Assembly: GCA_020351995.1 (NCBI GenBank)
Contig: CP070674.1
Span: forward strand, 1,413,307 to 1,477,306
DNA from: Candidatus Zixiibacteriota bacterium
GTDB taxonomy: Bacteria > Zixibacteria > MSB-5A5 > GN15 > FEB-12
DNA: 64,000 nt
Reading direction: 5' to 3'
The notes under the pieces were generated by a model. It had not been told where the DNA came from. It saw only the letters and a program-made list of their open reading frames with translations, and made no database searches. This document shows positions 4,719-32,182 of this stretch, one piece after another. Every line of letters begins with the position of its first letter. Position 1 is the first letter of the stretch. The position numbers were made by a program, and so were the translations under genes.

Positions 4719-7103
4719 ATGTTAGCGAAGTACGTTATACCTCTCGCGCTCGCTGCCATGTTGGTTTCCTCACTAGCCTACGCAAGCGGCGACTCTCGCC
4801 CCGCTATGAATCTCTCCCACGGCGCACCACTGGTTTTTACATCCAACGAAGGACAGTGGGATGACCAGGTCCATTTTCGAGCGAACATTAACGGGGCAAC
4901 CATCTGGTTCGCCACGGACGGTGTCTGTTATGAGTTCGTCCGGGACGTTTCAGGGAACAACGAAGCTCCCGACAGGCCCGACAAAACCGAAACTGCCCTC
5001 GAATGCCTGATGATCAAAAGCACGCTGGTTGGAGCCAACACGGCTGCGAAAGTATCGGGTGAGGGTCTTCTGGGTTACAAATCCAACTATTTCCTGGGTT
5101 CAGATCCTGCTCGCTGGCGTACCGGCGTACACAGCTACGAGGCAATCGTATACCATGACGTGTACCCGGGAATAGATCTGAGGTACTACTACAACGGCCG
5201 GAAGATGGAGTATGATTTCATTTTGTCTCCCGGTGCCGATCCTTCCGTTATACAGATTCGCTACGACGGTGTGGAATCAGTCGACGTCAATGAATACGGT
5301 GAGCTGGAAATCACCACCGCCTGGGGCACCGTTACGGAAACCTGCCCTTACATCTATCAGCAGGACGATTCCGGACGCCGGCAACTGACCGGAAGTTACA
5401 AGCTTATTTCGGAAAACAGCTTCGCCTTCAATTTAGACGACGACTACAACCCGGAAATGGCTCTGGTTATAGACCCGGTTCTGCTGTACAGCTCTTTCCT
5501 TGGAGGAAACTATACGCAGACCGCGTACGATAATGCTATTGATACCGACGGCTATGTCGTGATTGCCGGGCAGACGAGATCGGAAGATTTCCCGACTGTG
5601 GATCCTTATCAGGGTGAGCTCGCGGGCCAGTCCGACGTCTTTGCTACAAAGATAAACCCCGTCACCAGCGAGATTCTATACAGCACCTACTTCGGTGCCA
5701 CAAATGATGAAGAGGCTCCCAGGGTCGCTTTGGATTCGGAGGATAATATTTGCCTGGTTTTCAGAACCAACTCCCCCGATATGCCGACCGTCAACCCCTT
5801 TCAGTCCACTCTGGAAGGAGATCGCGATGCCTTTGTACTCAAGTTAAGCAGTACTGGTGACGCAGTTCTGGCCGCAACCTATCTCGGCGGAGATCGGGTA
5901 GAGTATCCATGGGGAATCACGGCCGATAACCAGGGCTACATGTATGTATGTGGTGAGACCGATTCTCGCTATTTCCCTCTCGAGAATGCCTATAGTACAG
6001 AAAACGCCGGCGGTGAAACGGATGGGTTTGTCACAAAACTCAGTCCCTCAGGTGATGCGTTGATTTACAGCACGTATCTCGGTGGAAGCGGCTCAACCGG
6101 TCTTACGGTCGCGGACGTCGATGCTTTGTATGATATCGCCGTAAATGACGCCGGAGAGGCCTATGTTGCCGGAGCCACGTACTCGCCAGATTACCCAGCC
6201 GTTAACGCCCTCTTCGAAACCATGATCAACAAAGAAGGTCCTACTGACGCCATAATAACCAAGTTCAGTGCTGCCGGAAACACCCTTGTCTTCAGTACCT
6301 TCCTCGGGGGCACCGAGGACGAGTGGATAAAGGATATCGAGATCGACGCCGACGGCAATCTGGTTATCGTTGGTTCCGTCGAATCGGACGATTTCCCAAC
6401 CTTAAATGCCTACCAGACAGAACGATGCCCTGGACCGGATCTGGGCATGGCCGCTGTTTTTATGACAAGAATGGCCGGCGACGGCAGCGCTCTTTTGTCA
6501 AGCACGTATCTCGGCGGGTGCGATGAGGATTTCGGAGAGGCATTGGGTATCGGACCAACCGGAAACATATTTATAAGCGGTACTACTTACTCAACCGATT
6601 TCCCCATGGTCGATCCCATCTACGGAGCACTCAACGGTGTGTGTGACGTTTTTCTCACAAAATTCGATTCGTCAGGATCAAACGTCATTTACAGCACCTA
6701 CTATGGCGGCAGCTCGGGCGATCATGGCATAGGCCTAAGCGTCGATAATAACGACTGGGCCCACATTACCGGGTACACACGGTCGTCTGACTTACCGCTG
6801 GTCAACCCGACACAAGCCAACGGGACCACCTATCCAAGCGGTAATGACGTCTTTCTAGCCATGATCAAAGGCGGATGCTGTAGATGGCTGACCGGTAACG
6901 CAGATGGTGACCCGAGTGACCGTCTGGACATACTTGATATTGGCTACGCCATTGACTGGCTGTTCCGCCAGGGCCCGGCGCTGCCGTGCGGGGCTGAACT
7001 CGACACCGATGCCAGCGGTCGACTCGATATAGAAGATATCGTGTATTTAGTAAATTACTTTTTCAAGTCGGGACCAGAACCGCTTCCGTGCCTCGATAAT
7101 TGA
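4719..7103 (+). CDS. Secreted SBBP beta-propeller-repeat protein with C-terminal dockerin-like module (subtype 1)
   Basis: 794 aa with a signal peptide (MLAKYVIPLALAAMLVSSLAYA). Many repeats of the pattern YSTY(L/F)GG...(D)..G..Y(V/I).G.T.S.DFP, the SBBP type. C-terminus at 6870..7100 reads GGCCRWLTGNADGDPSDRLDILDIGYAIDWLFRQGPALPCGAELDTDASGRLDIEDIVYLVNYFFKSGPEPLPC. Confidence 0.85.
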   Translation: MLAKYVIPLALAAMLVSSLAYASGDSRPAMNLSHGAPLVFTSNEGQWDDQVHFRANINGATIWFATDGVCYEFVRDVSGNNEAPDRPDKTETALECLMIKSTLVGANTAAKVSGEGLLGYKSNYFLGSDPARWRTGVHSYEAIVYHDVYPGIDLRYYYNGRKMEYDFILSPGADPSVIQIRYDGVESVDVNEYGELEITTAWGTVTETCPYIYQQDDSGRRQLTGSYKLISENSFAFNLDDDYNPEMALVIDPVLLYSSFLGGNYTQTAYDNAIDTDGYVVIAGQTRSEDFPTVDPYQGELAGQSDVFATKINPVTSEILYSTYFGATNDEEAPRVALDSEDNICLVFRTNSPDMPTVNPFQSTLEGDRDAFVLKLSSTGDAVLAATYLGGDRVEYPWGITADNQGYMYVCGETDSRYFPLENAYSTENAGGETDGFVTKLSPSGDALIYSTYLGGSGSTGLTVADVDALYDIAVNDAGEAYVAGATYSPDYPAVNALFETMINKEGPTDAIITKFSAAGNTLVFSTFLGGTEDEWIKDIEIDADGNLVIVGSVESDDFPTLNAYQTERCPGPDLGMAAVFMTRMAGDGSALLSSTYLGGCDEDFGEALGIGPTGNIFISGTTYSTDFPMVDPIYGALNGVCDVFLTKFDSSGSNVIYSTYYGGSSGDHGIGLSVDNNDWAHITGYTRSSDLPLVNPTQANGTTYPSGNDVFLAMIKGGCCRWLTGNADGDPSDRLDILDIGYAIDWLFRQGPALPCGAELDTDASGRLDIEDIVYLVNYFFKSGPEPLPCLDN

Positions 7104-7132
7104 TTATTGGTCCCGGAGATTCGTTCTGACAG

Positions 7133-7273: not shown

Positions 7274-9616
7274 ATGTTGCAAAGAAAACTAATCGCCAGC
7301 TCGCTTCTGTTCACGACCCTGCTGCTCATGGTATTATTTAGCGCGGGGCAATTGGGCGCGGCGAGCGACCCGGGACAGAATCAGTCTCCGTTTTTCACAG
7401 AGAACGTTGGCCAATGGGACAGTCACATCAGATTCAAGACTGGTTCCATGGATGCCACAGCCTGGTTTGCCGACGACGGCACCTATTACCAGTTTTCCAG
7501 AGAAATAATCGAGAACAAACATCCCGACGCCATGAAGACGCCTGTTCGCGAGAGCATAGACTTCGAATGCTTGATGATCAAGGCAAGCTTCATCGGAACG
7601 AGCGCCGCTCTCAAGATCGTCGGTGAAGAAATGCTGGACTACAAATGTAATTACTTCCTCGGCAACGACCAGACAAGATGGCAAACCAATGTCCCTAACT
7701 ACAGCTCCATTCTTTATCGCAATATTTATAACGGAATCAATCTCAGATATTATGGCAACGGTTCCGAGTTAGAATATGATTTTATAGTAGCTCCCGGGGT
7801 CGATCCGTCACAGATACAGATTCGCTACGACGGGATCGAATCGCTGGCGGTCAACGGCGATGGAGAACTTGAGGTTACCACACTATGGGGCACTATAATC
7901 GAATCCTGCCCGTATATCTATCAGGTCGACGGCGACGAGCAGATTGAGCTTTCCGGAAGCTACGAGCTAATTTCGGATAACAGCTTCGGTTTTGCCGTAG
8001 ACGCGATCTATGATGCCAGACTCCCGGTTGTAATCGACCCGATTCTGACCTACAGCACTTATTTCGGGGGGACGCGCGCTGACTATGCCGTGACCCTTGA
8101 AATTGACGATGCTCGCAACGTATACATTGCCGGCGTTACCTCGTCATCGGATTTCCCTCTTCTATTTCCATACCAGGCGACCTATGGCGGATCCATAGAT
8201 GCCTTCGTGACCAAGATGGAGCTCGACGGCACCCTGCTGTTCAGCACCTACTTTGGCGGAGTCGGTGCCGAAGAGTGGCCTACCATGGCCCTCGATGACG
8301 AGTTTAACATTTACATCTCGGGCCGGACATTTTCAAGCGACTTCCCGGCCTACCTCGGGTATTCCAACGAGATGAACGGTAACTCGGATCTATTCGCCTT
8401 CAAACTCAATAGCACGGGCGATCAACTGATCTACAGTTCCTTTCTGGGCGGCAGCGCTGACGAATACGCGGGCTATGTGGACGTTGACCCAAACCGCAGA
8501 TTTTATGTTTTTGCCATCACCGAATCCGATGATTACCCGCTGGTGAATCACTTCCAGACCTATCCCAGCCAGAACCCGGTCTCCTATGATCTCTGCCTGA
8601 CCAGATTCAATACCGCCGGGAATGACCTGGAATACAGCACCTATCTGGGCGGGACTGAAGACGAGTCCGCCCTGGGTATCGCGGTAGATGCAGCCGGCTG
8701 CGCCCATGTCTGCGGTTACACTTACTCACCCGAGTTCCCCGTAGAAAACCCTTATGATGCCGTTCAGGAAGGATGCGATGGCTTCATCACCAAGTTCAGC
8801 CCCGAGGGGAATAGCCTGATTTTTGGTACATTCTTCGGCGGAACGGAAAACGACTGGATTGAAGCCATTGACGTGGACGGGGAAGGCGGCGTATATGTGA
8901 CCGGTTCAACGAGGTCGGACGATTTCCCGCTCGTAAATCCCTTTCAGTCAGAATTTCGCGGAGGCGTCGATCTCATCACTGATTTATTCGCTTCCAAGTT
9001 TAACAGCACCGGCACAACCCTCATTTACAGCACCTACCTCGGGGGAACCGGTGACGACTTTGTCGAAAAGATCCTGATTGATGACCTCGGGGTCGCTATC
9101 ATCTCCGGATATACTTACTCGGCGGACTTCCCGCTTGTCAACCCGCTGTTCAGCGACCTCAATGGTATATACGATGCGAGCTTGAGTGCCCTCGGGCCAA
9201 CGGGGAACGAACTCACCTTCGGCACCTATCTCGGTGGCAGTGAAACGGAAATTGGCTGGGATCTTGCCGTCGACGAGGTTCGTAATGTATATCTCGTAGG
9301 GTTCACCAAGTCGCCGGATTTCCCTCTCGTCGACCCCATCCAGACCACGCTGAAAGGAACATTCGACGGTTTCGTGGCAATTATTGAACTGGGTTGTTGC
9401 GTCGGCATGTCCGGCAACGCCGATCATGATCCCGATGACCTGGTTTCGATTCTCGACGCCGATTACCTTATAAGCTGGATGCATCGAGGCGGTCCGGAGC
9501 CTTTATGCTTCGGAGAGGCCGACCTCGATGGCAGCGGCGCATTGAATATTCTGGATGTTGACTACTTGGTCAACTACTTATTCAGGGATGGACCTCCACC
9601 TGTCATTTGCGAGTAA
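7274..9616 (+). CDS. Secreted SBBP beta-propeller-repeat protein with C-terminal dockerin-like module (paralog of 4719..7103)
   Basis: 780 aa, collinear with the upstream gene. The N-terminal domains match (FTENVGQWDSHIRFK vs FTSNEGQWDDQVHFR) and the SBBP repeats are shared. C-terminus at 9389..9613 reads LGCCVGMSGNADHDPDDLVSILDADYLISWMHRGGPEPLCFGEADLDGSGALNILDVDYLVNYLFRDGPPPVIC. Confidence 0.85.
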   Translation: MLQRKLIASSLLFTTLLLMVLFSAGQLGAASDPGQNQSPFFTENVGQWDSHIRFKTGSMDATAWFADDGTYYQFSREIIENKHPDAMKTPVRESIDFECLMIKASFIGTSAALKIVGEEMLDYKCNYFLGNDQTRWQTNVPNYSSILYRNIYNGINLRYYGNGSELEYDFIVAPGVDPSQIQIRYDGIESLAVNGDGELEVTTLWGTIIESCPYIYQVDGDEQIELSGSYELISDNSFGFAVDAIYDARLPVVIDPILTYSTYFGGTRADYAVTLEIDDARNVYIAGVTSSSDFPLLFPYQATYGGSIDAFVTKMELDGTLLFSTYFGGVGAEEWPTMALDDEFNIYISGRTFSSDFPAYLGYSNEMNGNSDLFAFKLNSTGDQLIYSSFLGGSADEYAGYVDVDPNRRFYVFAITESDDYPLVNHFQTYPSQNPVSYDLCLTRFNTAGNDLEYSTYLGGTEDESALGIAVDAAGCAHVCGYTYSPEFPVENPYDAVQEGCDGFITKFSPEGNSLIFGTFFGGTENDWIEAIDVDGEGGVYVTGSTRSDDFPLVNPFQSEFRGGVDLITDLFASKFNSTGTTLIYSTYLGGTGDDFVEKILIDDLGVAIISGYTYSADFPLVNPLFSDLNGIYDASLSALGPTGNELTFGTYLGGSETEIGWDLAVDEVRNVYLVGFTKSPDFPLVDPIQTTLKGTFDGFVAIIELGCCVGMSGNADHDPDDLVSILDADYLISWMHRGGPEPLCFGEADLDGSGALNILDVDYLVNYLFRDGPPPVICE

Positions 9617-9666
9617 AGCCCGGCGATCGCGTTGCTGCGAGCCAGCCGGACCACTGTAAATAGATT

Positions 9667-9705: not shown

Positions 9706-9724
9706 CGGATGCTGTCACTCTATT

Positions 9725-13770: not shown

Positions 13771-14844
13771 TCAGTTGTCAGCGATGATCTTTTTCAGCGC
13801 AACTACATCAAGCAAATCCACTCGCCCGCTACCATCAACATCGAACCTCAAATCATTCGGGGTGGCGTCACGCGTATGGAACAGGTAGTTCATCAATACG
13901 TCCACGTCCCCGTTATCAGTTATCCCGTCGGCGTTAAGGTCAGCCCCGGGATAGATATGCACCACCAGATCACCAATCATCTCGAATCTTGTCTTATCGA
14001 GGAACTTCCCTGAAACGGTGTACGCCAGCTCTATATCGCCGGTCAATGGTTCATAGGGCTTGAGAAGATTCTTCAAGGCAACGGTGGCCCGGATAGCCTT
14101 TCCTCCATAGACGGGATCCTGCTGAACCACCATTATGGTCCTCGGTTTTACGGCATCAACCTTCACGGACTTAAGGTCAACGTCGTATACGTCTTTCCCC
14201 CACTCACAGAAATTCCCGAAATAGATGTCCACGAATCCTCTTATCGGCGTTGTAGTGACGATATACCCCGGATCCGCATACGTGAATGGGTCGGGGCAAG
14301 CGTCGCCAATGGTATACTCATATGGGCCTCCCCAGTCAGGCACCACATTTACGTCCCCCCATATCCAGTGGTCTACCGGCGGATAGGAAGACGAATCCAC
14401 GATAATCGTCTTTTCGGCGTGTTCGCTATCGATCGGCCCTATTGTGATAGTATAGGCCGGTTCGTCAAAGAACGGCGGCATCCCGGTACCGATCACGTCC
14501 ATGGCGACAAAACCTACCGTGTCGGCTACGGAACCGTCGCAACTGAACGTCAATAAACCGATTGGACCGGTAATATAACGGGTCAGGCCATCGGGAACCG
14601 TGTCAGGAACGGTAGCCGTCCACTCCGCACCATCGGGCGAGTATACCCTGAACCCATTGTCAAGAATCCGATGATAGTCCTCATCGCCGGTAACGTGAAG
14701 AACGAACTCTATCGTTTCACCGAGCTTGAGAGTGCCGTCGGGGTTGGTAGCCTCCACGTCCTCAATCCAGATTGACTGACCCCATGCCGCACTGCCGAAA
14801 AACATAAACAGGACAAACACGAGAAACAATCCTGCCAGTCTCAT
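13771..14844 (-). CDS. Secreted protein, third member of the family with 15091..16770 and 17193..18344; C-terminal dockerin-like module (subtype 2)
   Basis: The ORF track starts at 14856. I prefer the ATG at 14844 because ATGGGAGGTATTATG places a GGAGG just upstream of it. Signal peptide MRLAGLFLVFVLFMFFGSAAWG. C-terminus at 13774..13950 reads DLNADGITDNGDVDVLMNYLF...FDVDGSGRVDLLDVVALKKII. Confidence 0.8.
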   Translation of the reverse strand: MRLAGLFLVFVLFMFFGSAAWGQSIWIEDVEATNPDGTLKLGETIEFVLHVTGDEDYHRILDNGFRVYSPDGAEWTATVPDTVPDGLTRYITGPIGLLTFSCDGSVADTVGFVAMDVIGTGMPPFFDEPAYTITIGPIDSEHAEKTIIVDSSSYPPVDHWIWGDVNVVPDWGGPYEYTIGDACPDPFTYADPGYIVTTTPIRGFVDIYFGNFCEWGKDVYDVDLKSVKVDAVKPRTIMVVQQDPVYGGKAIRATVALKNLLKPYEPLTGDIELAYTVSGKFLDKTRFEMIGDLVVHIYPGADLNADGITDNGDVDVLMNYLFHTRDATPNDLRFDVDGSGRVDLLDVVALKKIIADN

Positions 14845-14926
14845 AATACCTCCCATTGAATCAGGTTTAAAGGATTAGTGTTTTTCCCAGCAGCGTCAAT
14901 TGTGAGGGGGGCTACGCTGCGACCGC

Positions 14927-14955
14927 AATATAGCTGGAGGCCCCCGTCTTGTCAA
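14927..14955 (-). promoter_or_regulatory. Sigma70-type promoter TTGACA-N17-TATATT for 13771..14844
   Basis: The minus strand reads cgTTGACAagacgggggcctccagcTATATTgc, with -35 at 14950..14955 and -10 at 14927..14932. Confidence 0.65.
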
Positions 14956-15021
14956 CGATATGCCCGGACAATCTGCCACAAATTGCGGCCTTTCGACACA
15001 AATTCGCCGGGCGTAAGCCAC

Positions 15022-15051
15022 AAAAAAACCCGCCCTGTAAAGGGCGGGTTT
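15022..15051 (-). terminator. Intrinsic terminator after 15091..16770
   Basis: The minus strand reads AAACCCGCCC-tttaca-GGGCGGGTTT followed by a T-run (the A-run at 15022..15028 on plus). Confidence 0.8.
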
Positions 15052-15090
15052 GTATTCTGATGCCTGAACGAATCAGACAACTCAGTTCGT

Positions 15091-16770
15091 TTACTGCATG
15101 ACGATATCAATGATAGCGCGAACGTCGAGCAGGTCGATACGCCCACTGTCATCGACATCCATGCACTCATCCATTCTCTCGCCCCAGAGCGTAGCTCTCG
15201 GGCCACCATTGAACAACCAGTCTATCATGAAGACTGCGTCTTCGATGTTGGTCACGCCGTCAAAGGTGACGTCGCCAACATACATCGTCAGGTTGAACAG
15301 GAACGTGAGCGTCTGATCGCCACCGGACTTGTAATCATAGTAGACCGGGCAGGGTCTATCCTGATAACCATCCGACGGAACCGGGCGCATACCACCGGCA
15401 CCAAGGAAGCGCATAATGAAACAATCCGTCACCAGCGCTGAATCATCTCCAAAATACTCTATTTGAGGATGATCAGCGGAGTAGGGCGGGATGTTGAACA
15501 CGCGGATGGTTCCCCAGTCAATGTCTTCAAAATCATCGCACCAGATACGAACGTCAAGTCTTCTCTCATTCTCAAGCGCTTTGAGTTTGGTCGTCTCCGG
15601 GAAGCAAGTAGCATAAGGGTCACAGCCTGAGACCGTAATCGTAAAGTCCTCGTCATCGCTCAACCCGGCAGTGTTGGTAGCGGTAACCGTAACCGCATGA
15701 ACACCAACCGCGGCGGTCCAGTCGATCACGCCGGTCACGGGCTCAATAGTCATGCCGGCGGGGCCAGCGATTGAAAAGGTCGGGGGAATCGGATAGCCGA
15801 CTTCGTCGAGTTCGACGTTATAAGTGAACGCCGCACCCTCGGTGGCTGTTTGGTCATCAATCGCGGTTATAACCGGAGCCTTATTGACCACGATCACGAA
15901 CTCCTCGGTTGCTTCGCTCGGGCAGTCGTTGGAAACTCTGACGGTTACGGGGTGGGTGCCTTTAACGCAGGTCCAGTTGATTAGGCCGCTCACAGGGTCA
16001 ATAGTCATGCCGGCCGGAGCGCCGGGGTCCAGCGCGAAAGTAATAGGAGCGTCACCGGTCGCGTCAACATCGTAGGTAAAAGCGTCGCCATCCAGGTACG
16101 GGCCGGCTGGAGCGGTCGTAGCAATCGCCACATCTTCACAGCCACCTGGCTCGAACTGAAACACGTACGGGCCATCCCAGGCGATCGAATCGCCAACGGC
16201 GGTCCAGAGCCAGAAGTTGCCCGGCTCCCAGTACGTGGTATCCAAAACCAGTTGGGCCTCCGCGGCGCCCGCGACACTGGCAACGTTCAAGGAATAAAGC
16301 CAGTTATTGAATCCCGCCGGCAAACCATCCCCTTCGTTAGACACACCGGCGATACCCAGACCACCAAGACCCTTGGTAAGGGCGGCAGCTCCCCAGTACA
16401 TGTCGAACCAGGAATAGCATCCTTGGAACGGGTAGCAGCCCGCCATGAACGCGCACTCCATTTCGAATGGGTAAGTGCAGTTCTTTCCCAGGGTCACTCC
16501 GCCAATGGTAACACCATCCGGAGAATCGAAGTAGAAGCCGTTCGAAATCGCGGTGCGGACCTCATTCACGCCATCACGATTTAGATTTAAGAAGTAAATT
16601 GGAATTACCAGATCACCACCAGCCAGGGGAATCTTTCCCTCGGCGGTCAGCCCTGTCACCTCGGCGAGATCTACATAGACCCTGCAGGAGTCTACTTGGG
16701 CGGTTGCCAGGCTGAATGAGGCAATTACCAAAACAGCAAGCAATGCTGTCACTTTGATGGGTGCTCTCAT
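15091..16770 (-). CDS. Secreted protein: family N-domain + two He_PIG/cadherin-like Ig domains + pre-dockerin module + dockerin-like module (subtype 2)
   Basis: 559 aa with signal peptide MRAPIKVTALLAVLVIASFSLATA. Ig-type repeats include FTYDVDATGDAPITFALDPGAPAGMTIDPVSGLINWT and FTYNVELDEVGYPIPPTFSIAGPAGMTIEPVTGVIDWT. C-terminus at 15094..15279 reads GDVTFDGVTNIEDAVFMIDWLFNGG...DVDDSGRIDLLDVRAIIDIV. Confidence 0.85.
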   Translation of the reverse strand: MRAPIKVTALLAVLVIASFSLATAQVDSCRVYVDLAEVTGLTAEGKIPLAGGDLVIPIYFLNLNRDGVNEVRTAISNGFYFDSPDGVTIGGVTLGKNCTYPFEMECAFMAGCYPFQGCYSWFDMYWGAAALTKGLGGLGIAGVSNEGDGLPAGFNNWLYSLNVASVAGAAEAQLVLDTTYWEPGNFWLWTAVGDSIAWDGPYVFQFEPGGCEDVAIATTAPAGPYLDGDAFTYDVDATGDAPITFALDPGAPAGMTIDPVSGLINWTCVKGTHPVTVRVSNDCPSEATEEFVIVVNKAPVITAIDDQTATEGAAFTYNVELDEVGYPIPPTFSIAGPAGMTIEPVTGVIDWTAAVGVHAVTVTATNTAGLSDDEDFTITVSGCDPYATCFPETTKLKALENERRLDVRIWCDDFEDIDWGTIRVFNIPPYSADHPQIEYFGDDSALVTDCFIMRFLGAGGMRPVPSDGYQDRPCPVYYDYKSGGDQTLTFLFNLTMYVGDVTFDGVTNIEDAVFMIDWLFNGGPRATLWGERMDECMDVDDSGRIDLLDVRAIIDIVMQ

Positions 16771-16812
16771 AATTTCTCCCTCAAATAGAGTTGAAAAGTT
16801 TATTGGGTTGTA
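16771..16812 (-). repeat. Conserved ATG-proximal leader block shared with 18345..18386
   Basis: By hand alignment, 38 of 42 nt are identical to the block upstream of the paralog. It contains the GAGGGAG RBS. Confidence 0.8.
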
Positions 16813-16961
16813 AACGGTAGTATTCTCCCAAAAATGCTGCGTCTAATCTTTTGCGACGATTTAGTGTGTCGTCACAAGTATTCCAAGCCACCCGGGTTAG
16901 CTAACACTTTTGATAAAGGCGGCGGAAGTAAACGGAACAGTAAGATTAATTCGTACACAAA

Positions 16962-16990
16962 AATATATCATCCGCAACCCATTTTGTCAA
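16962..16990 (-). promoter_or_regulatory. Sigma70-type promoter TTGACA-N17-TATATT for 15091..16770
   Basis: The minus strand reads gcaTTGACAaaatgggttgcggatgaTATATTttt. This implies a leader of about 185 nt. Confidence 0.65.
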
Positions 16991-17115
16991 TGCCAAAAAC
17001 GCGTCCTGACGGCAATTCTTTTCACAATACTTTATTAAAGTTTAAGGGATTAGCAAAAGCCGATATATTTTCTCCTATATTGCTGAGTTGCGGCGCAGGT
17101 GCCCCGGGACCACCG

Positions 17116-17148
17116 AAAAAAAACCCGCCCCTTTAGCAGAAGCGGGTT
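17116..17148 (-). terminator. Intrinsic terminator candidate after 17193..18344
   Basis: AACCCGC / GCGGGTT stem (17122..17128 and 17142..17148) followed on the minus strand by an 8-T run. Confidence 0.6.
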
Positions 17149-17192
17149 CTTATTCAGATTCCTGAAGCTATTCGATAGCTCAGACGCCTGTC

Positions 17193-18344
17193 TTAGTACA
17201 CATACTCGATCAGCGCCCGAATATCGAGCAGGTCAAAGCGACCACTCTGGTCGAAGTCCATGAATTCATCCATCCGATAACCGTCATAGGTGCAGGGCTC
17301 TCCGCCGTGGAAGAGGTAGTCAATCATGAAGACTACGTCATCGTTATTGACGGCGCCGTCAAAGTTCACATCGCCCTGGCTGATCATCTGAAGGAAGTCG
17401 CCATACAGAGTGTTTTCGCCACCAGCTAAATAGCTGTACGTGACCCAATACTCACCGGTATAGTCATCGGCAGGCAGCGGACGGAAGCCACCTGAGCCAA
17501 GGAAGCGCATCAGGTAGGCGTTGGTAACGACTGAGTCACCTTCGACCCAGGCCAGACCCTCATTAGTGTAGCACGGGATCTTGCCGAAGATCTTGACCGT
17601 GCCCAAGTCAACCGCATACGGATCATCTTCGCAATGAATCGAAACGTTCAGAACGCGGTCATTGTCATTGACACCGATCTCAAACGGGTTAGGCCAGCAA
17701 GTGGTAAACGGCCCTTCCGGACACGGGTCAAAACCACCCACGAATAGCGGGTCTGGAGGGGTCCAGCCCACATTAGCGCCAACACCGGTCCAGAGCCAGA
17801 AGTTGCCCGGTTCCCAGTAAGTAGTATCCATAACCAGCTGGGCCCCCAGCGGGCCGGAAACGCCCCAAGCCTTGATGGCGTAAATCCAGTCATCAAATCC
17901 CGGGGGAAGACCAGTACCCTTTTCCGCCAGGCCAGCAATACCCAGACCACCAAGACCCTTGGTAAGATCGGTGGCCGAGAAGTACATGTCAAACCAGGAA
18001 TAGCAATTGAACGGCTCGAATGGATAGCAGCCATTCATGATCGCGCACTCAAGGTCAACATTGTACACGCAGTTCTTGATAAGACTCAACGAATCAATGG
18101 TGACGCCGTCGGGCGATAAGAAGTAGTACCCGTTCGATACCGCGGTACGGAAATCCTCGGCGCCACTGGTGTTAACAAAGTGGATCGGAAATTCGAGGTC
18201 GGCGCCGACATCAGGGATATTGCCCTCTCCGTCAAGACCCGCAATCTCGCTATTAAGCACATAGACCTCTTGCCCCTGTGCGAAACCGAACGAGAAGAGT
18301 ACCATAACAGCAAGTAGTACTGTTGCTTTGAAGGGTGCTCTCAT
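17193..18344 (-). CDS. Secreted protein, short paralog of 15091..16770 (no Ig insert); dockerin-like module (subtype 2)
   Basis: 383 aa with signal peptide MRAPFKATVLLAVMVLFSFGFAQG. The N-domain is collinear with the paralog (LTKGLGGLGIAG, DTTYWEPGNFWLWT). C-terminus at 17196..17378 reads GDVNFDGAVNNDDVVFMIDYLFHGG...DFDQSGRFDLLDIRALIEYVY. Confidence 0.85.
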   Translation of the reverse strand: MRAPFKATVLLAVMVLFSFGFAQGQEVYVLNSEIAGLDGEGNIPDVGADLEFPIHFVNTSGAEDFRTAVSNGYYFLSPDGVTIDSLSLIKNCVYNVDLECAIMNGCYPFEPFNCYSWFDMYFSATDLTKGLGGLGIAGLAEKGTGLPPGFDDWIYAIKAWGVSGPLGAQLVMDTTYWEPGNFWLWTGVGANVGWTPPDPLFVGGFDPCPEGPFTTCWPNPFEIGVNDNDRVLNVSIHCEDDPYAVDLGTVKIFGKIPCYTNEGLAWVEGDSVVTNAYLMRFLGSGGFRPLPADDYTGEYWVTYSYLAGGENTLYGDFLQMISQGDVNFDGAVNNDDVVFMIDYLFHGGEPCTYDGYRMDEFMDFDQSGRFDLLDIRALIEYVY

Positions 18345-22568: not shown

Positions 22569-22920
22569 GATCAACCACCAGCAGCGGAAGATTCGACTCT
22601 AAAGTCACCGGACTCAATCCCGCTCTCCCGTAGATATCCGCCTTGTAGCGGCTCTCTAACATGGACAGAATTATCTTACCATTGCCTATGCTGTCCCCAA
22701 TGTCGGATGTCCGACAGTATTCAACGGGACTAATCCATCCCGGCTGCCATGACTTGACAGGGGCGGCGCAAGACGCTTTATAACAAACAATTACGTTCAG
22801 GCCTCGATGGCTGACGCCGGGACGACAATCTAAAGGTTTGGCCCCTGAAGCCGATATTTTCTTAAAGGACCGGCAGTGCCGGTTCCGCCCTACCATTTAT
22901 TAGAAAGGACTATCGGGGTT

Positions 22921-23352
22921 ATGTACCACATTACAGGATACCATTGGAAAAACGACCGCGGCCTCAGTCTACTCGAAGTGCTGGTGGCAATGATTGTGCT
23001 CGCGGTCGGTATCTTAGGACTGGCACCTATGGTTGTGTTATCTATCGAAGGAAACAGTATATCGCGCGACTTCATCGTCGCCACCGAACTGGCTAAGGAG
23101 CAGCTTGAGCTATATGAAGCGCAGGATGTATTGATGAAGGCCAAGCCGGCACCCGCGCTTCCCACTGATAGTCTCAGTGATACCTTGATTTACTTACCCG
23201 ACGTTGACGGCTATTCGCGCACCGTTACCATTCAGGCCGCTGAAGGAATCAATCCGCCGAATCTTGTGAAAGTGACAATCGACATATCCTGGACAGACAA
23301 GTTAGGCAAGGTCCGCGCGATAAGACACTCAACACTGATGATGAATAACTGA
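22921..23352 (+). CDS. Type IV pilus minor pilin, PilV-like
   Basis: Prepilin N-terminus MYHITGYHWKNDRG/LSLLEVLVAMIVLAVGILGLAPM, the class III signal with Glu at +5. The ORF track starts at GTG 22876; I prefer ATG 22921. Confidence 0.75.
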   Translation: MYHITGYHWKNDRGLSLLEVLVAMIVLAVGILGLAPMVVLSIEGNSISRDFIVATELAKEQLELYEAQDVLMKAKPAPALPTDSLSDTLIYLPDVDGYSRTVTIQAAEGINPPNLVKVTIDISWTDKLGKVRAIRHSTLMMNN

Positions 23353-23368
23353 GGGGGGCAGGTTGAAA

Positions 23369-23986
23369 ATGAATACAAAAGAGAAAAAGCTCATTGGCGG
23401 ACACGCCGGTTTCACTCTTATAGAGCTTCTTATAGCGGCTCTCATTACGGCGATTCTGGCCGTTGCGGCGTTTCAGTTCTATGTCACCATGCAGCAGCAG
23501 GTCACTTCTCAAAAAGAGATTTCGGACATGCAGCAGATAAGCCGCTCGTGTCTCCAGGAAATCAGCAAAACTCTCCGCATGGCGGGCTACATGCTTCCCG
23601 AGGGCCACCCTGCCTTTGACACGATAAGCTCTGCCGAAATATGGGTATACATCGGGACCGGTGACCTGAGTGCCCTGGACCCGGTCGACACGACCAAATA
23701 CTACCTTCAGGAGTTTGATGCTGCTCAGTATGACAAGGTTCCGGGTCTCGCTGCTGGCATGAAACTATACAATCTGATTAAGGAGTCCGAAGAGCCCGGC
23801 TGGACACAGCCCGAAATCTTCGCCGACTACATAACGTCGCTATCCTTTCTGCCTATTGGTTCGTCAGAAATAGCAGTCACCATAGAGGTGCAAACCTCGA
23901 AAAAGGATGAAACCTTCAACGCTAACAACGGCTTTCGAACCTTTGTCAACACCGAGCGCGTTAACATGCGCAACCTGACGATATGA
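23369..23986 (+). CDS. Type IV pilus minor pilin, PilW-like
   Basis: MNTKEKKLIGGHAG/FTLIELLIAALITAILAVAAFQFY prepilin cleavage/methylation motif. The gene order V-W-X matches the classical fimU-pilVWXY1E order. Confidence 0.75.
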   Translation: MNTKEKKLIGGHAGFTLIELLIAALITAILAVAAFQFYVTMQQQVTSQKEISDMQQISRSCLQEISKTLRMAGYMLPEGHPAFDTISSAEIWVYIGTGDLSALDPVDTTKYYLQEFDAAQYDKVPGLAAGMKLYNLIKESEEPGWTQPEIFADYITSLSFLPIGSSEIAVTIEVQTSKKDETFNANNGFRTFVNTERVNMRNLTI

Positions 23987-25188
23987 GGAGGATCAAGTTG
24001 AAGAAGCTGATAAATGACAATAGTGGCGGGGCGCTTGTTATCGTCCTCGGTTTAATGCTTCTGCTGACAATAGCGGCCATACTGGCGGTGCATACCGCCC
24101 AGACCGATATAGACCTGTCTTTCAATCAGGTAGACTACGACCACGCCTTCTACATCGCCGACGCCGGCCTGAAAAAGGCCTTCAATGAACTGAACAAGGA
24201 CAACTTCTGGTCAGCCGGCTACCTTGAAATGGCCTTTGAGGACGGCGCGTATACCGTCATCACGGAACGGGATATCCCCGTCACCGATTCGGCCTTCGAC
24301 CCGATCACCGACAGGGTGACCCTGCGATCAACGGCCAGCTATCGGGAGTCTCAGGCTAACCTGAGAGCAGTGGTGGTACCGGAATTATTCTACCCCTTCA
24401 AATACGCCGTGTATGGAGAAGATGGGATTCTCATGGACAACAATTCGGAAACCGATTCCTACAACTCCGATGACGGGGCTTATGTTGATTCGCTCGCCGG
24501 GACAGAAGGCGATGTCGCATCTAATGGAACTATAGTCCTGGAGAACTCAGCGTTGGTAAACGGCGACGCCAGTAGTTCCCTGACCGGTGGTGTCAGCGTT
24601 TGTGCCACGTGTGGCGTCACGGAAGATGTTAGCGATGCAGCCGAGCCTTTCGAAATTCCGCCGATACCGGATTCGGTGTTCACTTACTATGAATCAAACA
24701 ATGACAACATTACCGGTGTTGATCCGGTAACCAGCATGATTTACCCCGGGCCGGATCTGATCCTGGCCATCGCCGACACGATAACCCTGACAACCGGCGT
24801 TTACTACTTCAACGACATAACGATGAACTCAAATTCGGTGATCATTCTGGATCCGACAGATCCAGACGTTGAGGTAAAGATATATATTCGCGGAACACTC
24901 ACCCTGGACAATAACACCACCATAAACCCGAATAATGACCCGACGGATTGCCTGATCTTCTCCGACGGCCAGATAGTTACAATCGGCAACGATACTGAGA
25001 TTTATGCCGCGTTCTACGGACCGGATGCCGATGTTGATCTGGGTAACAGCTGCGATTGGTACGGTTCGATAATAGCTGAATCGGTGAGCATGGTCAATAC
25101 GGGAAGCCTTCATTATGACGAAGCGCTGGCACCGATTCCGATCACTACCACCGGCAATATGCTCATGATATCCTGGATCGAGGATTAG
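23983..25188 (+). CDS. PilX-N-domain pilus assembly protein with C-terminal beta-helix-like domain
   Basis: 401 aa. N-terminus GGALVIVLGLMLLLTIAAILAVHTAQTDIDLS is PilX_N-like, with no Glu5. ATGA overlap with the PilW-like gene. C-terminal block FYGPDADVDLGNSCDWYGSIIAESVSMVNTGSLHYDEAL. Confidence 0.7.
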   Translation: MRRIKLKKLINDNSGGALVIVLGLMLLLTIAAILAVHTAQTDIDLSFNQVDYDHAFYIADAGLKKAFNELNKDNFWSAGYLEMAFEDGAYTVITERDIPVTDSAFDPITDRVTLRSTASYRESQANLRAVVVPELFYPFKYAVYGEDGILMDNNSETDSYNSDDGAYVDSLAGTEGDVASNGTIVLENSALVNGDASSSLTGGVSVCATCGVTEDVSDAAEPFEIPPIPDSVFTYYESNNDNITGVDPVTSMIYPGPDLILAIADTITLTTGVYYFNDITMNSNSVIILDPTDPDVEVKIYIRGTLTLDNNTTINPNNDPTDCLIFSDGQIVTIGNDTEIYAAFYGPDADVDLGNSCDWYGSIIAESVSMVNTGSLHYDEALAPIPITTTGNMLMISWIED

Positions 25189-25420
25189 CACTTTTGGCCC
25201 GAATCGCCTCACAGGCACATGGGAACTATAGCAGTATGTGAGGCACGACCGACGGCCCGGGCCCGATGAAAAGGTCGTCGATATTGAGAGTCAATTGGAC
25301 TCGAACGCTTTTAGACAGGTAACATGCGAGGGGCCTTTCTTCCTGGCGGGGGCTGACCAGCCTGCATGACATCAAGCGTGTTACAACAAGATAACGCTGT
25401 AATACGAGGAGTGTGTAGCC

Positions 25421-26587
25421 GTGGGACAACTACACATCAGTCAGCAAGGCGGGGCATTGCTCATCGCTCTGGGCATCATGTTACTGCTCACTATCGCAGC
25501 CCTCATAGCCGTGGATACCGCTCAAACCGATATGGAGCTATCCTTTAACCAGGTTCACTCCAGCCAGTCATTCTATGTCGCCCAGGCCGGGCTTATCCGG
25601 GCTTTCAACGAGATTAACAATGACAATGACTGGACGGCGGGCTTTCTGAACGAGCCGTATGAGGGGGGCTATTACACCGTCATCGTGGTTGACAGCACGG
25701 TCGAGGGTGCTCTGGTAGACACTGTCATTCTTCGCGCCACCGGTAAGATCGGCGACGCCAACACTAATCTCGAGGCACTGGTCGTTCCCGAATACTGGCG
25801 ACCATTTCAGTATGCTATGTTCGGAGACAGCGCCATAGTGATGGACAATAACACCTGTACCGACTCCTATAACTCGGACTCAGGCGACTATGCCTCCACC
25901 ATGGATCTAATCAATGGTGATGTCGCCTCTAACGGCGACCTGGAGTTCATCCATACCGCCGTTGTCGGCGGCGACGCCTCGAGCGCGACCGAAGGAGGCA
26001 TCTTTGTCTGTGCCACCTGCACCGTTTATGGAGATACCACCAGCAAGATCGATCCTCTCCCCGTTCCACCGGTACCGGATTCCGTTTACGATTGGGCACG
26101 GTCGGTCAACGCCGCTCCCGGCGGGCTTTCGGATCCATCCATGTACGATGGCGTCACTCATGCTTTAAACATGAATCTCAACTCAACGCTGACTCTATCC
26201 GGAGGCGTCTATTATTTCTCCGAAATCACAATAGAGAACAATTCCCGGCTGCAGGTTGCGCCTGGCGAAAGCGTCGAAATCTACGTGACCGGCGATATAT
26301 CTATCGGGCAAAACGCGTATGTCAATACTGACGGCGATCCGGCCGACATGGTGATTTTCTCCGATGGCGACTCCCTGCAGCTAGGCATGAGCACGGTGGT
26401 GCACGCCGCCTTTTATGGGCCTTCGGCAATTATGACAATGGAGAACAATTGTCAGTACTATGGATCAATCGTAGCCTACTCCGGCAGCGCCGTAAATGCC
26501 GCCTGTATACACTACGATCGGGCACTCCGGGAAGTGGAAGGCGGAAAAACCGGCGTGATGCATATGATCGCCTGGAAAGAATTATAA
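25421..26587 (+). CDS. Second PilX-N-domain protein (paralog of 23983..25188)
   Basis: 388 aa, GTG start. N-terminus GGALLIALGIMLLLTIAALIAVDTAQTDMELSFNQV. Collinear with its paralog, including the VCATC and FYGPSA...YGSIVA...IHYDRAL blocks. Confidence 0.7.
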   Translation: MGQLHISQQGGALLIALGIMLLLTIAALIAVDTAQTDMELSFNQVHSSQSFYVAQAGLIRAFNEINNDNDWTAGFLNEPYEGGYYTVIVVDSTVEGALVDTVILRATGKIGDANTNLEALVVPEYWRPFQYAMFGDSAIVMDNNTCTDSYNSDSGDYASTMDLINGDVASNGDLEFIHTAVVGGDASSATEGGIFVCATCTVYGDTTSKIDPLPVPPVPDSVYDWARSVNAAPGGLSDPSMYDGVTHALNMNLNSTLTLSGGVYYFSEITIENNSRLQVAPGESVEIYVTGDISIGQNAYVNTDGDPADMVIFSDGDSLQLGMSTVVHAAFYGPSAIMTMENNCQYYGSIVAYSGSAVNAACIHYDRALREVEGGKTGVMHMIAWKEL

Positions 26588-29600: not shown

Positions 29601-32182
29601 GCCGCCGGGTAACCATCGGCGTCGGCATCATAACTATATAATTGTTGATATGTTCCGGTGGTGATCGGGGTCGAGGTAAAGGTCGGCGCGATTCCGGCTA
29701 CCGATATGGTGAAGCTCTGCGGATCGGTACCCGAACTGTTACTGGCTTCAACCACAACATCGTAATCCCCTACGTCACCAGGCGTCCACTGAATCAGCCC
29801 CGTAGCCGGGTCGATGGTCATCCCGGTAGGGTAAGTCGTGAGCGCGAAGGTTGGGGCCGGATTGCCGCTTGCTTCAACATCGTATGTGTATAATTGATTG
29901 TACGTCCCGGTGAGAATAGGAGTCGAGGTGATCACTGGCGCCTCGGCAGGCAGGACCGAGATTGTGAAATTCTGCGGCGTCGTGCCGGCCGAGTTAGTGG
30001 CCTCCAGAACAACGTCGTAGTCACCGTCCGAAGGCGGAGTCCACTGGATAAGACCGGTAATAGGATCGACAGTCATTCCGGCCGGAAAGGTAACCAGAGA
30101 ATAACTGGGCACCGGATACCCGTCAGCATCGGCGTCATAAACATATAGTTCACCGGAAACACCTGTCAGGGGTGGGCTTGTGGTAAACGAAGGGGCGATA
30201 CCGCTGACCGAGATGGTATAGGGCTGATAATCATCGCCCCACGTATTCGAAGCGTTAATGGTAACATCGAAATCGCCAACGTCATCCGGCGTCCATTCTA
30301 CGAGGCCGGTAACCGGATCGATAGTCATTCCCGGCGGTGCCAAAGTAAGTGAGAAATCCGGATCTGGGTCGCCATCGGCGTTGGCGTCATAGCTATACAG
30401 CACACCGTAAGTAGCCGTCGTTACTGGAGTGGACGTGAACATGGGCGCGATTCCGCCGAGGGGACAGTCGATTGGAGCGGGGCCGCCGCGGTGCAGGTAG
30501 TCGATCAAATAGTCAACATCGAGAATATCTACCTGGTCATTGTCATCGGCATCGGCCTCCTGCTCGCAAATCGGTGCCGAGCCGTCTCGAAAGAGATAGT
30601 CGACTATAAAGTCCAGGTCAAGAAGATCGAATTGACCGTTATGGTCGGCATCGCCACGCAATTCACAGCACTCCAGCCATTCAAGCTCGGTGTTGACGTA
30701 TAAATACATTCGCTCACCCACAATTGAGTCAACCCGCACATAGATGCCCGAATAACCATAGTAACTGTCACTGCTCGGATAAGTCTGCGGACCAAACTCG
30801 CTCTGTCCGGGGACATCGGACGAAAAAAGCGCCCCTTTTCTGGTCTCCCAGGGATACCACCATTGGGCGCTGTCGGTCAAACGGCCTTCAGGGTTATAAG
30901 TATAATCCTTGAGCGGGTTGTAACCGGCATCCTCGACGCACACGGCATAGTGGGGATCTAAGGGCGTTCCCTGGTTGAGTGATATAATCTCTTGGGGGTC
31001 GACCAGCGAATCATCAATATGTGTTATCAATAGTCCGCGGTCCAGCACGTCATAACCGAACGTGAGATTGGGATAGAACCATGAGCAAAAATCGGAGTCG
31101 AATTTATCGAACTTACCTGCTGACTGCGGATTTCGGTACTCGAGTAAGAAGTACTCCAGGTCGCTGTCATTGATGGGTATTCTATATAATGAAGAATCTG
31201 CGGTTGTCTCAACATTGTATATGACGAGATCATGATACTCGCCCTCAAGAATGATCGGCTCGATATACCCCAGCCGCACCTTGTTCCAGCCGCAGTAATG
31301 ATTGGCGCTTACCCCGCCCAGCGACAAATAACCGTAGCCATAGTAACCCATTGGATCCCAATCAACAAGCGGATGGTCGTTCTGGTCGTTCGCAATATTA
31401 TAGGTCGATGTCACCAGTTTGCCGTCGTAGTCGTACAGGTCTGCCAGGCCGATGTTATGGCCAACTTCGTGAACAAACACGCGGATACCGCTCCGTACAG
31501 TCTCTCCGCTGAACTGCACCGGGTATATGGGGTCCCGCAGTGGTTTGAGCTCCGGACAGGTGTTCCAGGCGTCCACCTGGACCCGGTCATAGCGGCCCCA
31601 GCCCTGATCACTGGCAGCGGCATAGGACCAGATATCGAGAGGATCCTGGGAATCTTCTTCTCCGACACCGGAACGGATGAAACAGATCGCGTCGGCCTTC
31701 CTATCCTCGTTGCCATCATATAGAGAATAGTCAATGTACGGATCTAATATCTCAAACAGCGAACTGAATGGAAAATACTTTCCAAATGTGGGGCCGGCGT
31801 TGTACCAATCAAATACATCGCCGGTAAGCTTCACCTGGCCATACGAAACCTCATGGATGTAATCGGCCAGAGAACCCTCGGGAAGAACGTCGCGGGAGAA
31901 GAGCAAAGTATCGAAAGCCTGCCATGGTAACGTCCCGGGCCGATCTCCCCATTCCACCAGAATAGCCAGCAGCCTGAGACTGTCTCCCTTAAAGCTTGCC
32001 GCTGAGAGGAGGTCAGCTTGTGTCCCGGCATATCCGTGCCAGGGAAGTCTGCCCCATTGAACCTGGACCTGTGATTCGGGCATATCGAAGACGAGAAAAT
32101 AATCGGGGTCGGAAGCCAGCGCGGGCACGCCAAGGAGTAAGACAAGGCTGCCAATTAGAAGTTTTCTGGGCATTTTCTTCAC
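26660..32182 (-). CDS. Giant secreted protein: M6/InhA-like metalloprotease domain + internal dockerin-like module + 15 tandem He_PIG/cadherin-like Ig repeats
   Basis: 1840 aa with signal peptide MKKMPRKLLIGSLVLLLGVPALA. Zinc site FVHEVGHNIGLADLYDYDG, with HEVGH at 31457..31471. Dockerin-like CCELRGDADHNGQFDLLDLDFIVDYLFRDGSAPICEQEADADDNDQVDILDVDYLIDYLHRGGPAPIDC at 30455..30673. Repeats span 26663..30454. Confidence 0.9.
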   Translation of the reverse strand: MKKMPRKLLIGSLVLLLGVPALASDPDYFLVFDMPESQVQVQWGRLPWHGYAGTQADLLSAASFKGDSLRLLAILVEWGDRPGTLPWQAFDTLLFSRDVLPEGSLADYIHEVSYGQVKLTGDVFDWYNAGPTFGKYFPFSSLFEILDPYIDYSLYDGNEDRKADAICFIRSGVGEEDSQDPLDIWSYAAASDQGWGRYDRVQVDAWNTCPELKPLRDPIYPVQFSGETVRSGIRVFVHEVGHNIGLADLYDYDGKLVTSTYNIANDQNDHPLVDWDPMGYYGYGYLSLGGVSANHYCGWNKVRLGYIEPIILEGEYHDLVIYNVETTADSSLYRIPINDSDLEYFLLEYRNPQSAGKFDKFDSDFCSWFYPNLTFGYDVLDRGLLITHIDDSLVDPQEIISLNQGTPLDPHYAVCVEDAGYNPLKDYTYNPEGRLTDSAQWWYPWETRKGALFSSDVPGQSEFGPQTYPSSDSYYGYSGIYVRVDSIVGERMYLYVNTELEWLECCELRGDADHNGQFDLLDLDFIVDYLFRDGSAPICEQEADADDNDQVDILDVDYLIDYLHRGGPAPIDCPLGGIAPMFTSTPVTTATYGVLYSYDANADGDPDPDFSLTLAPPGMTIDPVTGLVEWTPDDVGDFDVTINASNTWGDDYQPYTISVSGIAPSFTTSPPLTGVSGELYVYDADADGYPVPSYSLVTFPAGMTVDPITGLIQWTPPSDGDYDVVLEATNSAGTTPQNFTISVLPAEAPVITSTPILTGTYNQLYTYDVEASGNPAPTFALTTYPTGMTIDPATGLIQWTPGDVGDYDVVVEASNSSGTDPQSFTISVAGIAPTFTSTPITTGTYQQLYSYDADADGYPAATFSLTTFPTGMTIDPASGLIQWTPDDDGDHNVIVEAANAYGTDIQNFTISVAGIAPTFISSPPTTGVVGVLYSYDAETDGYPAATFALTEFPTGMTIDPATGVVQWTPTEEGDVDVTIEASNAYGLDIQNYTISVSGTPEPPVITSTPVTSVTVGQAYAYDVEATGYPAPTFDLITSPSGMNINSTTGLISWTPGSVGDFDVEVEALNVNGADTQSFVVTVSGVAPSFTSTPILTATYGVQYEYDADATGDPTPTYALLDGPAGMTINSGTGVVRWTPADTGDVDVVIEAINAAGSTQQSYTIGVTGVAPAFTSTPVTTATYGQLYSYDANASGYPAATFALTTYPTGMTIDGNTGVIEWTPDATGDADVVVEATNIYGTDYQSFTISVSGVAPSFTSTPVTTGVTGVLYSYDADADGYPTPTYSLTTYPTGMTINSGTGLVEWTPDSEGDYDVEIEATNTYGTAYQNFTISVSAAPAGAVITSTPVTTATIDQPYTYDVEATGNPAPTFDLITSPSAMKINATTGVITWTPGSIGDYDVEVEAANVNGADTQSFILTVVGIPPTFTSTPITTGTYNVLYEYNADATGEPTPTYSLTTYPAGMTINSGTGLVRWTPSDTGNVDVVIEATNSAGTTPQSFTISVTGVAPAFTSTPVTTGTYGQLYSYDAEAGGYPAATYSLTTYPTGMTIDANTGVVEWTPSDIGDYNVVVEATNIYGTDTQPFTISVSGVAPFLADIPDQVQLLSVGFTEDADATGYPAPTYSLTTYPTGMTIDPITGEIAWTPTGVGDFDVVVEATNAYGTDTDDFVLTIVEVPTITSTAVTTGTYGQLYSYDVEADGYPAPTYALTTKPSGMTVDANTGVIEWTPADVGDYDVTVVAINSYGSDTQSFAITVVGIAPSFTSTPITTGSVGVLYTYDADASGYPAPTYALTTYPSGMTIDPVTGEVEFTPGSSGDYDVVIEATNDYGTDYQSYTINVP
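26663..30454 (-). repeat. 15 tandem coding repeats of 246-258 nt (82-86 aa Ig-like units)
   Basis: Repeat boundaries counted by hand. Consensus: G(V/I)AP.FTSTP.TT.TYG.LYSYDADA.GYPAPTY.LTTYP.GMTID..TG...WTP...GDYDVV.EATN.YGTD.Q.FTISV. Confidence 0.9.

Follow-up and report, generated by a model that had tools for sequence, protein, structure and literature searches.

A putative non-cellulosomal cohesin-dockerin-type assembly system, with cysteine-framed dockerins and a divergent cohesin-like domain, in Candidatus Zixiibacteriota

We analysed a 64-kb stretch of DNA (referred to, at its full length, as the window) from a Candidatus Zixiibacteriota metagenome-assembled genome (MAG), in which six open reading frames (ORFs) encode proteins that carry a dockerin-like module, that is, a Ca-loop/helix unit present in duplicate. 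The six proteins, P1–P6, which may form part of an extracellular assembly system, are 360–1840 aa in length, and all six begin with a Sec-type signal peptide (judged by eye). A hidden Markov model (HMM) built from the six modules and searched against the six-frame translation of the whole window yields exactly six matches and nothing further at E<1. Together with the translations, this result bears out the sequence-only reading of this DNA, which had placed duplicated modules in the same six ORFs and had sorted them into two subtypes.

Subtype-1 modules, which contain a CC...C...C frame, are found in P1, P2 and P6. P1 (4719–7103, +) comprises a signal peptide, a DUF7948 domain (Pfam, 5.6e-67), an SBBP beta-propeller (Pfam, 3.4e-11) and a C-terminal Cys-framed dockerin (6870–7100, +; module HMM 116.5 bits). 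P2 (7274–9616, +), which is 100% identical to database protein P0001 from a Candidatus Zixiibacteriota MAG, has the same Pfam-defined architecture, with its subtype-1 dockerin at 9389–9613 (+). P6 (26660–32182, −) comprises a signal peptide, an M6-like metalloprotease (HEVGH motif; TIGR03296, E=2.4e-24, with a score under the family's trusted cutoff), an internal Cys-framed dockerin (30455–30673, −; module HMM 101 bits) and approximately 15 He_PIG immunoglobulin-like (Ig) domains (1.9e-126, 15 stretches). The Pfam and TIGR03296 matches uphold the earlier description of the cargo as SBBP propellers, Ig arrays and a metalloprotease, with no glycoside hydrolases.

Subtype-2 modules are found in P3, P4 and P5, and contain zero or one Cys each, in agreement with the earlier statement that they lack the Cys frame. 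P3–P5 are paralogues, in which a signal peptide is followed by a domain of ~175 aa, here termed X, a domain of ~115 aa, here termed Y, and a subtype-2 dockerin; in P4 only, two He_PIG Ig domains (8.5e-19; alignment A3) are inserted between X and Y. P3 (13771–14856, −) has its X at 14308–14775 (−; X-family HMM match at aa 28–183, 1e-51) and its dockerin at 13774–13950 (−). P4 (locus tag JSV52_06420; 15091–16770, −) has its X at 16153–16677 (−; X HMM 1e-46) and its dockerin at 15094–15279 (−). P5 (locus tag JSV52_06425; 17193–18344, −), the architecture of which was read from the translation and a structural model, has its X at 17739–18269 (−; aa 26–202), its Y at 17379–17726 (−; aa 207–322) and its dockerin at 17196–17378 (−). 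The P3–P5 family is small, comprising 11 proteins that are from Zixibacteria wherever a name is given.

The duplicated unit had been read as the type-I dockerin pattern, and comparisons with Pfam, with the PDB and with predicted structures support this assignment. Searched against the isolated modules, Pfam Dockerin_1 (PF00404; gathering score 22.9 bits) matches five of six, two above the gathering score (P5, 30.9 bits; P3, 27.6 bits) and three just below it at E ~1e-3 (P6, 20.1 bits; P4, 19.7 bits, E=1e-3; P2, 19.6 bits). The P1 module, which has 51% identity with that of P2, gives no direct Dockerin_1 match. In a Pfam scan of the whole proteins, Dockerin_1 is above the gathering score in P3 (24.6 bits) and P5. 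In the translations, each of the 12 Ca loops has D at position 12 and D, N, S or T at positions 1, 3, 5 and 9, and each leads into a helix; the modules are predicted to bind Ca2+.

A profile of 42 subtype-1 modules, compared with the PDB, matches the C. thermocellum Cel9 dockerin (4fl4_A) at E=8e-8, with both repeats aligned, and then about 20 more dockerins; calmodulins appear only at E values of 0.005 and above. A generic EF-hand or TSP3 repeat was considered as an alternative identity and was rejected: both repeats match dockerins end to end, and calmodulins match at least five orders of magnitude worse. The AlphaFold2 (AF2) model of the P2 module, made on the 42-module alignment, has a predicted local distance difference test score (pLDDT) of 90.8 and shows the three-helix fold of dockerins (helices 24–35, 44–47 and 57–68), with a beta-bridge between the N- and C-terminal segments (residue 10 to residue 76). 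In a Foldseek search of this model against the PDB, ranks 1–31 are all dockerins, with target template-modelling (TM) scores of 0.70–0.82. The helix pattern of subtype 2 is alike, as seen in the AF2 model of P5 (helices 334–345, 359–362 and 372–382). NCBIfam holds no dedicated model that matches the modules; NCBI labels one paralogue 'dockerin type I repeat-containing protein'. We conclude that, by sequence homology and predicted fold, the six modules are genuine dockerin homologues of the double F-hand type.

The feature that sets subtype 1 apart is its set of four Cys, which do not vary among the three window copies or across 42 homologous modules that share 27–60% identity; in the 42-module alignment G0 and both position-12 Asp are likewise invariant. 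The earlier claim of an invariant four-Cys frame holds in this respect, but the spacing it gave does not hold throughout: P6 has CC-x3-G rather than CC-x4-G. Its remark that disulfide staples of this kind are not associated with clostridial dockerins fits the absence of the four Cys from all solved dockerins. The same Cys-framed module ends 72 of 120 P2 homologues; it is internal, as in P6, in P0220, a 1757-aa relative of P6; and modules of subtype-1 type also form tandem arrays of up to 9–12 copies (P0121 has nine tandem dockerins in 720 aa). Among 544 related modules, 101 have the full CC-C-C pattern, 37 have C9+C75, and ~85 have C4/5+C51+C75; a C-terminal Cys is accompanied by an N-terminal one in several frameworks. 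A word-indexed homology search with the 75-aa module by itself returns no match, a limit of that kind of search. An exhaustive HMMER search with the three window subtype-1 modules returns 25,845 cluster representatives at E≤1e-3, a number that falls to 5,063 at E≤1e-10; the profile does not single out the Cys type, and the 25,845 representatives comprise all dockerin kinds.

A structural precedent for the Cys frame is the 'intramolecular clasp', a non-covalent contact, known from clostridial and ruminococcal dockerins, between residues preceding loop 1 and the C-terminus that is needed for dockerin stability and cohesin binding (Slutzki et al., 2013, PMC3821032). Given this known N/C-terminal clasp, and given the co-occurrence of C-terminal with N-terminal Cys, the subtype-1 Cys frame is probably a covalent version of the dockerin clasp. 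Of the CC pair, one Cys would bond with the C-terminal Cys and the other with the Cys of the inter-repeat linker, and the two disulfides would pin the N-terminal strand both to the linker and to the C-terminus. The likeness to the published clasp lies in the pairing of the two termini, represented here by the modelled beta-bridge; the differences are that known clasps consist of stacking interactions or salt bridges, whereas the conserved Cys here imply disulfide staples, and that there is here a third attachment point, in the linker. We found no description in the literature of an invariant four-Cys dockerin frame.

The sequence-only reading had found no scaffoldin in the window, a statement that needs revision. 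Pfam Cohesin (PF00963) indeed has no match in any window ORF, and there is no multi-cohesin scaffoldin, but it was overlooked that domain X of P3, P4 and P5 resembles a dockerin partner. The AF2 model of P5, made on an alignment of 12 sequences, has a pLDDT of 70.5 overall and of 80–93 in the strands of X, which form a beta-sandwich. A Foldseek search with the model retrieves cohesin-only chains at probability 1.00 (4uyp_C, TM 0.68; 4uyq_A, TM 0.67; 1ohz_A, TM 0.60; 2ccl_A, TM 0.59; 5lxv_C and 4ums, TM 0.56); its other matches are generic two-domain Ig adhesins, at TM ~0.2. Profile-profile comparison with hhalign connects X with Z, a metagenomic cohesin-family domain, at 92–94% probability (E ~5e-7, 120–129 columns); for the X alignment that includes P3 (A5) against the Z alignment (A6), the result is 92.3%, E=5.5e-7, over 120 columns. 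Negative controls (He_PIG, Y) are below 1%.

Z itself is a bona fide cohesin family: the A6 profile matches 28 cohesins in the PDB (best, 2.6e-8), and Z in P0192 scores 32.9 bits against PF00963, for which the gathering score is 24.1. The best window match of the cohesin-family Z profile is X of P4 (E=0.006). In addition, X and Z are interchangeable within alternating Doc-X/Z-Doc arrays of metagenomic and Zixibacteria proteins. Since fold search, profile-profile comparison and domain architecture agree, we read X as a divergent cohesin-like module, and, on sequence profiles and a model, it is probably a cohesin homologue. Neither a cohesin-like family of this kind, invisible to Pfam, nor type IX secretion system (T9SS)-anchored forms of it were found described in the literature.

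Domain Y, in turn, is a conserved beta-sandwich that contains several Cys and lies immediately before the subtype-2 dockerin in P3–P5 (predicted strands within residues 213–321 in P5). Y has no Pfam match, and hhalign comparisons with cohesin, He_PIG and Z profiles are below 1%. In type II X-module-dockerin dyads (CipA X-Doc, PDB 2B59) the position occupied by Y is taken by a stabilising X-module; no sequence or profile similarity was found for Y, and the likeness is positional only.

To place P3–P5 among their relatives we draw on a GTDB scan with the X profile, which yields 11 loci, mostly on Zixibacteria MAG chromosomes; one of these Zixibacteria loci has four X-Y-Doc genes in tandem, like P3–P5. 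The neighbours at a further locus, that of P0272, are housekeeping genes only. Fusions of X to T9SS C-terminal sorting domains (CTDs; PF18962, 29.6, 33.0 and 26.9 bits) occur in unclassified MAGs, and these X-T9SS genes adjoin a gene for a subtilase S8-PKD-cohesin-dockerin protein (L009:237–2621) or for a TSP3-repeat-dockerin protein (L010:3–2255), which makes the two loci candidate cargo/anchor gene pairs. P0280 consists of X and a T9SS CTD where P5 has Y-Doc. Similarly, among the 120 P2 homologues, the DUF7948-SBBP body is followed at the C-terminus either by the Cys-framed module or by a T9SS-type tail (PF18962/PF13860). PF18962 (Por_Secre_tail) is absent from P1–P6 in the Pfam scan. The window also encodes, at 62338–63813 (−), a 491-aa FG-GAP repeat protein that ends in FlgD_ig (35.7 bits) and in part of a Por_Secre_tail (20.8 bits, under the gathering score); it resembles T9SS-type cargo, encoded by a genome that also employs dockerin tails. 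Taken together, the T9SS tails on X relatives, on P0280, on P2 homologues and on this protein indicate that cohesin-like modules can be cell-anchored in this group.

Relatives of another kind are alternating (Doc-X/Z)n arrays, which account for ~47 of the top 150 relatives (P0138, P0143, P0154, P0192, P0146, P0207 and others) and have a period of ~240–265 aa, with linkers of only ~5–10 residues between dockerin and X. Such polyproteins, with plugs and sockets in alternation, could self-polymerise or fold back on themselves.

According to the hypothesis that we favour, and that we consider rather likely, the window encodes part of a non-cellulosomal, two-specificity cohesin-dockerin-type assembly system. 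By analogy with the type I and type II specificities of hierarchical cellulosomes, the two dockerin subtypes would have two binding specificities. The X domains of P3–P5, as small adaptors, would receive the subtype-1 dockerin of the cargo proteins (the propellers and the protease), and the subtype-2 dockerin of the adaptor would plug into another cohesin-like module, either on a cell-surface anchor or on another adaptor. An adaptor mechanism of this kind would explain both the existence of two subtypes and the confinement of subtype 2 to X-bearing proteins. The proposed binding of X to dockerins draws on their co-occurrence in the same architectures.

Several observations weigh against this hypothesis. 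The window contains no anchoring protein, that is, no X or cohesin combined with a T9SS CTD, a lipobox or a transmembrane segment. The dockerin-tagged proteins have no recognisable outer-membrane export signal, so that their surface exposure in a diderm is an assumption. Many genomes are known that have dockerins and lack functional cohesin partners. Regarding X, HMMER searches with 12 members against Pfam and against PDB sequences return nothing at E≤10; hhalign of X directly against three CipA cohesins gives an insignificant 6%, and against the non-iterated Z core only 33%; and the Foldseek matches were obtained with a three-domain model of P5, for which the aligned part is not reported. The link between X and cohesins thereby runs through intermediate sequences and a model of medium confidence, and beta-sandwiches resemble one another generically.

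The same observations can be accommodated by supposing that the dockerin-like modules are partner-less Ca2+-binding tails, which stabilise or fold the protein or bind polysaccharide, extracellular polymeric substances or mineral, and that X is a mere Ig-like or carbohydrate-binding-module (CBM)-like beta-sandwich. The lack of Pfam Cohesin matches in the window and the lack of HMMER similarity between X and cohesins fit this explanation, as does the interpretation, in a preprint on Omnitrophota, of a dockerin-adjacent beta-barrel as CBM35-like (10.1101/2023.11.21.568195). In many non-cellulolytic genomes, moreover, dockerins reportedly outnumber cohesins (Peer et al., 2009, as cited in PMC6461901). 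However, a mere Ig-like or CBM-like X would not be expected to exchange places with the bona fide cohesin family Z in Doc-X/Z-Doc arrays, to align with Z at 92% in hhalign and to retrieve cohesin chains at Foldseek probability 1.0, and partner-less tails would not be expected to retain the full dockerin architecture in both repeats, beyond the Ca loops. We therefore regard this explanation as unlikely.

X and dockerin might instead bind each other in cis, such that Doc-X repeats are the rigid units of a ladder or rod, P3–P5 are self-docked, and the role of the interaction is architectural. The short linkers of the Doc-X arrays are compatible with such docking, and the 'Dockerin-type' giant proteins of Omnitrophota are predicted to be ladder-like, with beta-barrels alternating with dockerin-like helices (bioRxiv 10.1101/2023.11.21.568195). 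Yet P1, P2 and P6 have a dockerin and no X, and would require a partner in trans; some relatives combine X with a T9SS CTD in the absence of a dockerin, as fits a cell-displayed receptor; and in P3–P5, Y and up to two Ig domains separate X from the dockerin. Docking confined to cis is, on this evidence, quite improbable. More improbable still is the proposal that the C-terminal, Cys-framed module serves primarily for sorting or attachment, as a tag that stands in for the T9SS CTD and is read by an export or anchoring machinery and not by a cohesin. The alternation of Cys-framed modules (72) and PF18962/PF13860 tails at the ends of the 120 P2 homologues, the T9SS CTD of P0280 at the place of Y-Doc in P5, and the T9SS-like tail of the FG-GAP protein in the window are what this proposal would predict, but a terminal tag is hard to reconcile with an internal module in P6 and in P0220, with tandem arrays of up to 9–12 copies, or with a fold and a profile that are those of a dockerin.

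Compared with the type I dockerin-cohesin pairs known from the cellulosomes of clostridia and ruminococci (PDB 1OHZ, 4FL4, 4UYP), the modules described here have the same two 22-residue F-hand repeats with D/N at positions 1, 3, 5, 9 and 12 and the same three-helix fold, and are recognisably homologous in sequence; X has, in the model, a cohesin-like beta-sandwich fold; two dockerin subtypes and adaptors that combine cohesin-like and dockerin modules recall hierarchical scaffoldins. The host, in contrast, is a diderm of the FCB (Fibrobacterota, Chlorobiota, Bacteroidota) group, Zixibacteria, and not a Firmicute; subtype 1 has four invariant Cys; loop positions 10 and 11 are hydrophobic (IL/LL) rather than S/T; and X lies beyond the reach of Pfam Cohesin. 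The cargo also differs from that of a cellulosome, in which dockerins are borne by carbohydrate-active enzymes: P1–P6 contain no glycoside hydrolase (GH), carbohydrate esterase (CE), polysaccharide lyase (PL) or CBM domain. A multi-cohesin scaffoldin is likewise absent from the window, where the cohesin-like modules number only three and occur singly, in proteins that also bear a dockerin.

Dockerins and cohesins outside cellulosomes have reportedly been described before (Peer et al., 2009). One parallel is the 'planctosome' hypothesis, according to which freshwater Planctomycetes possess a cohesin/dockerin machinery that is not a cellulosome and that includes metallopeptidases (Andrei et al., 2019, PMC6461901). 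In both cases cohesin and dockerin modules occur in an uncultured diderm lineage that is not cellulolytic, the cargo includes a Zn-metallopeptidase, there are adaptors with both dockerin and cohesin modules, and the model is purely genomic; the two differ in phylum, in that planctosome cohesins are detectable with Pfam, in that the planctosome anchor is a lamin-tail domain, and in that neither a Cys-framed dockerin nor a T9SS-anchored cohesin-like module is described there. The Omnitrophota dockerin-type giants (West-Roberts et al., 2023, 10.1101/2023.11.21.568195) likewise combine non-cellulosomal dockerin repeats with TSP3 repeats in candidate phyla, and their alternating beta-barrel/dockerin-like units may be compared with the Doc-X/Z arrays of the relatives described above. 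Those proteins, however, exceed 30,000 aa and have helices that flank a CBM35-like barrel, whereas here the dockerin modules are complete and separate and the beta-sandwich is related to cohesins. We found no work that joins Zixibacteria with dockerins, cohesins or cellulosomes.

The genomic arrangement of the six genes bears on one further claim of the sequence-only reading, namely that a dense, diversified set of dockerin-like modules points to a Ca-dependent assembly or attachment system. That role remains the most reasonable reading, but the six genes are not one locus. P1 and P2 are adjacent (4719–9616, +), P3–P5 form a tandem array (13771–18344, −), and P6 stands apart; among the genes that lie between them are ftsH, a phosphoribosyltransferase gene (hpt), tilS, and genes for a TrkA-type K+ channel, a PP2C protein and a response regulator, as well as a pseudopilin cluster. 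An operon or island of six genes was accordingly rejected, housekeeping genes such as ftsH, hpt and tilS being interspersed, and with a GC content of 49–54% the window shows no compositional island. Because the six genes are not one locus, the density seen here is attributable to a genome with many such proteins and to one tandem paralogue array.

The remainder of the window consists of housekeeping genes, of which some groups may be recorded here. The pseudopilin cluster (22876–26587, +), which is convergent with the 3' end of the P6 gene, has four pseudopilin- or minor-pilin-like genes (N_methyl twice, PilX_N, DUF7305 twice) and may be a component of a type II secretion system or a type IV pilus. 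Beyond P6 in coordinate order, 32913–41526 contains genes of envelope/polysaccharide type, for glucuronyl C5-epimerase-like, AftA_N-like membrane glycosyltransferase, methyltransferase-like and sulfatase-like proteins and a 388-aa ORF. Two HtrA/DegP-like trypsin-PDZ proteases and one PDZ-only paralogue are encoded at 42580–44082 (−) and 53365–56182 (−), and near them, at 51471–53180, a 569-aa Ser/Thr kinase with two kinase-domain stretches. Three ORFs of 350–420 aa (1107–2366, −; 34041–35207, +; 50465–51529, −) match neither Pfam nor any of the profiles for dockerin, X and Z.

The textbook case of programmable protein assembly outside the cell is the docking of dockerins onto cohesins, the function of which is known almost only from cellulolytic Firmicutes. 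Beyond the window, we tentatively propose, as a possibility that we think has somewhat less than an even chance of being right, that Zixibacteria and related FCB lineages have an unrecognised, Pfam-invisible cohesin family, X, either displayed through T9SS or fused to dockerins; that X and disulfide-clasped dockerins build a hierarchical, two-specificity extracellular 'proteosome/adhesosome' with proteases and beta-propeller binders; and that X-Y-Doc proteins serve in it as monovalent adaptors or as units that polymerise head to tail. Designer protein scaffolds could make use of disulfide-clasped dockerins and of new orthogonal cohesin-dockerin pairs. If the hypothesis is correct, a disulfide-stapled dockerin variant would be widespread (the full four-Cys frame is seen in 101 of the 544 modules inspected), a cohesin family missed by domain libraries would account for some of the surplus of 'orphan' dockerins that has long been noted in genomes, and the plug-and-socket logic of the cellulosome would serve proteases and binding proteins in an uncultured sediment phylum.

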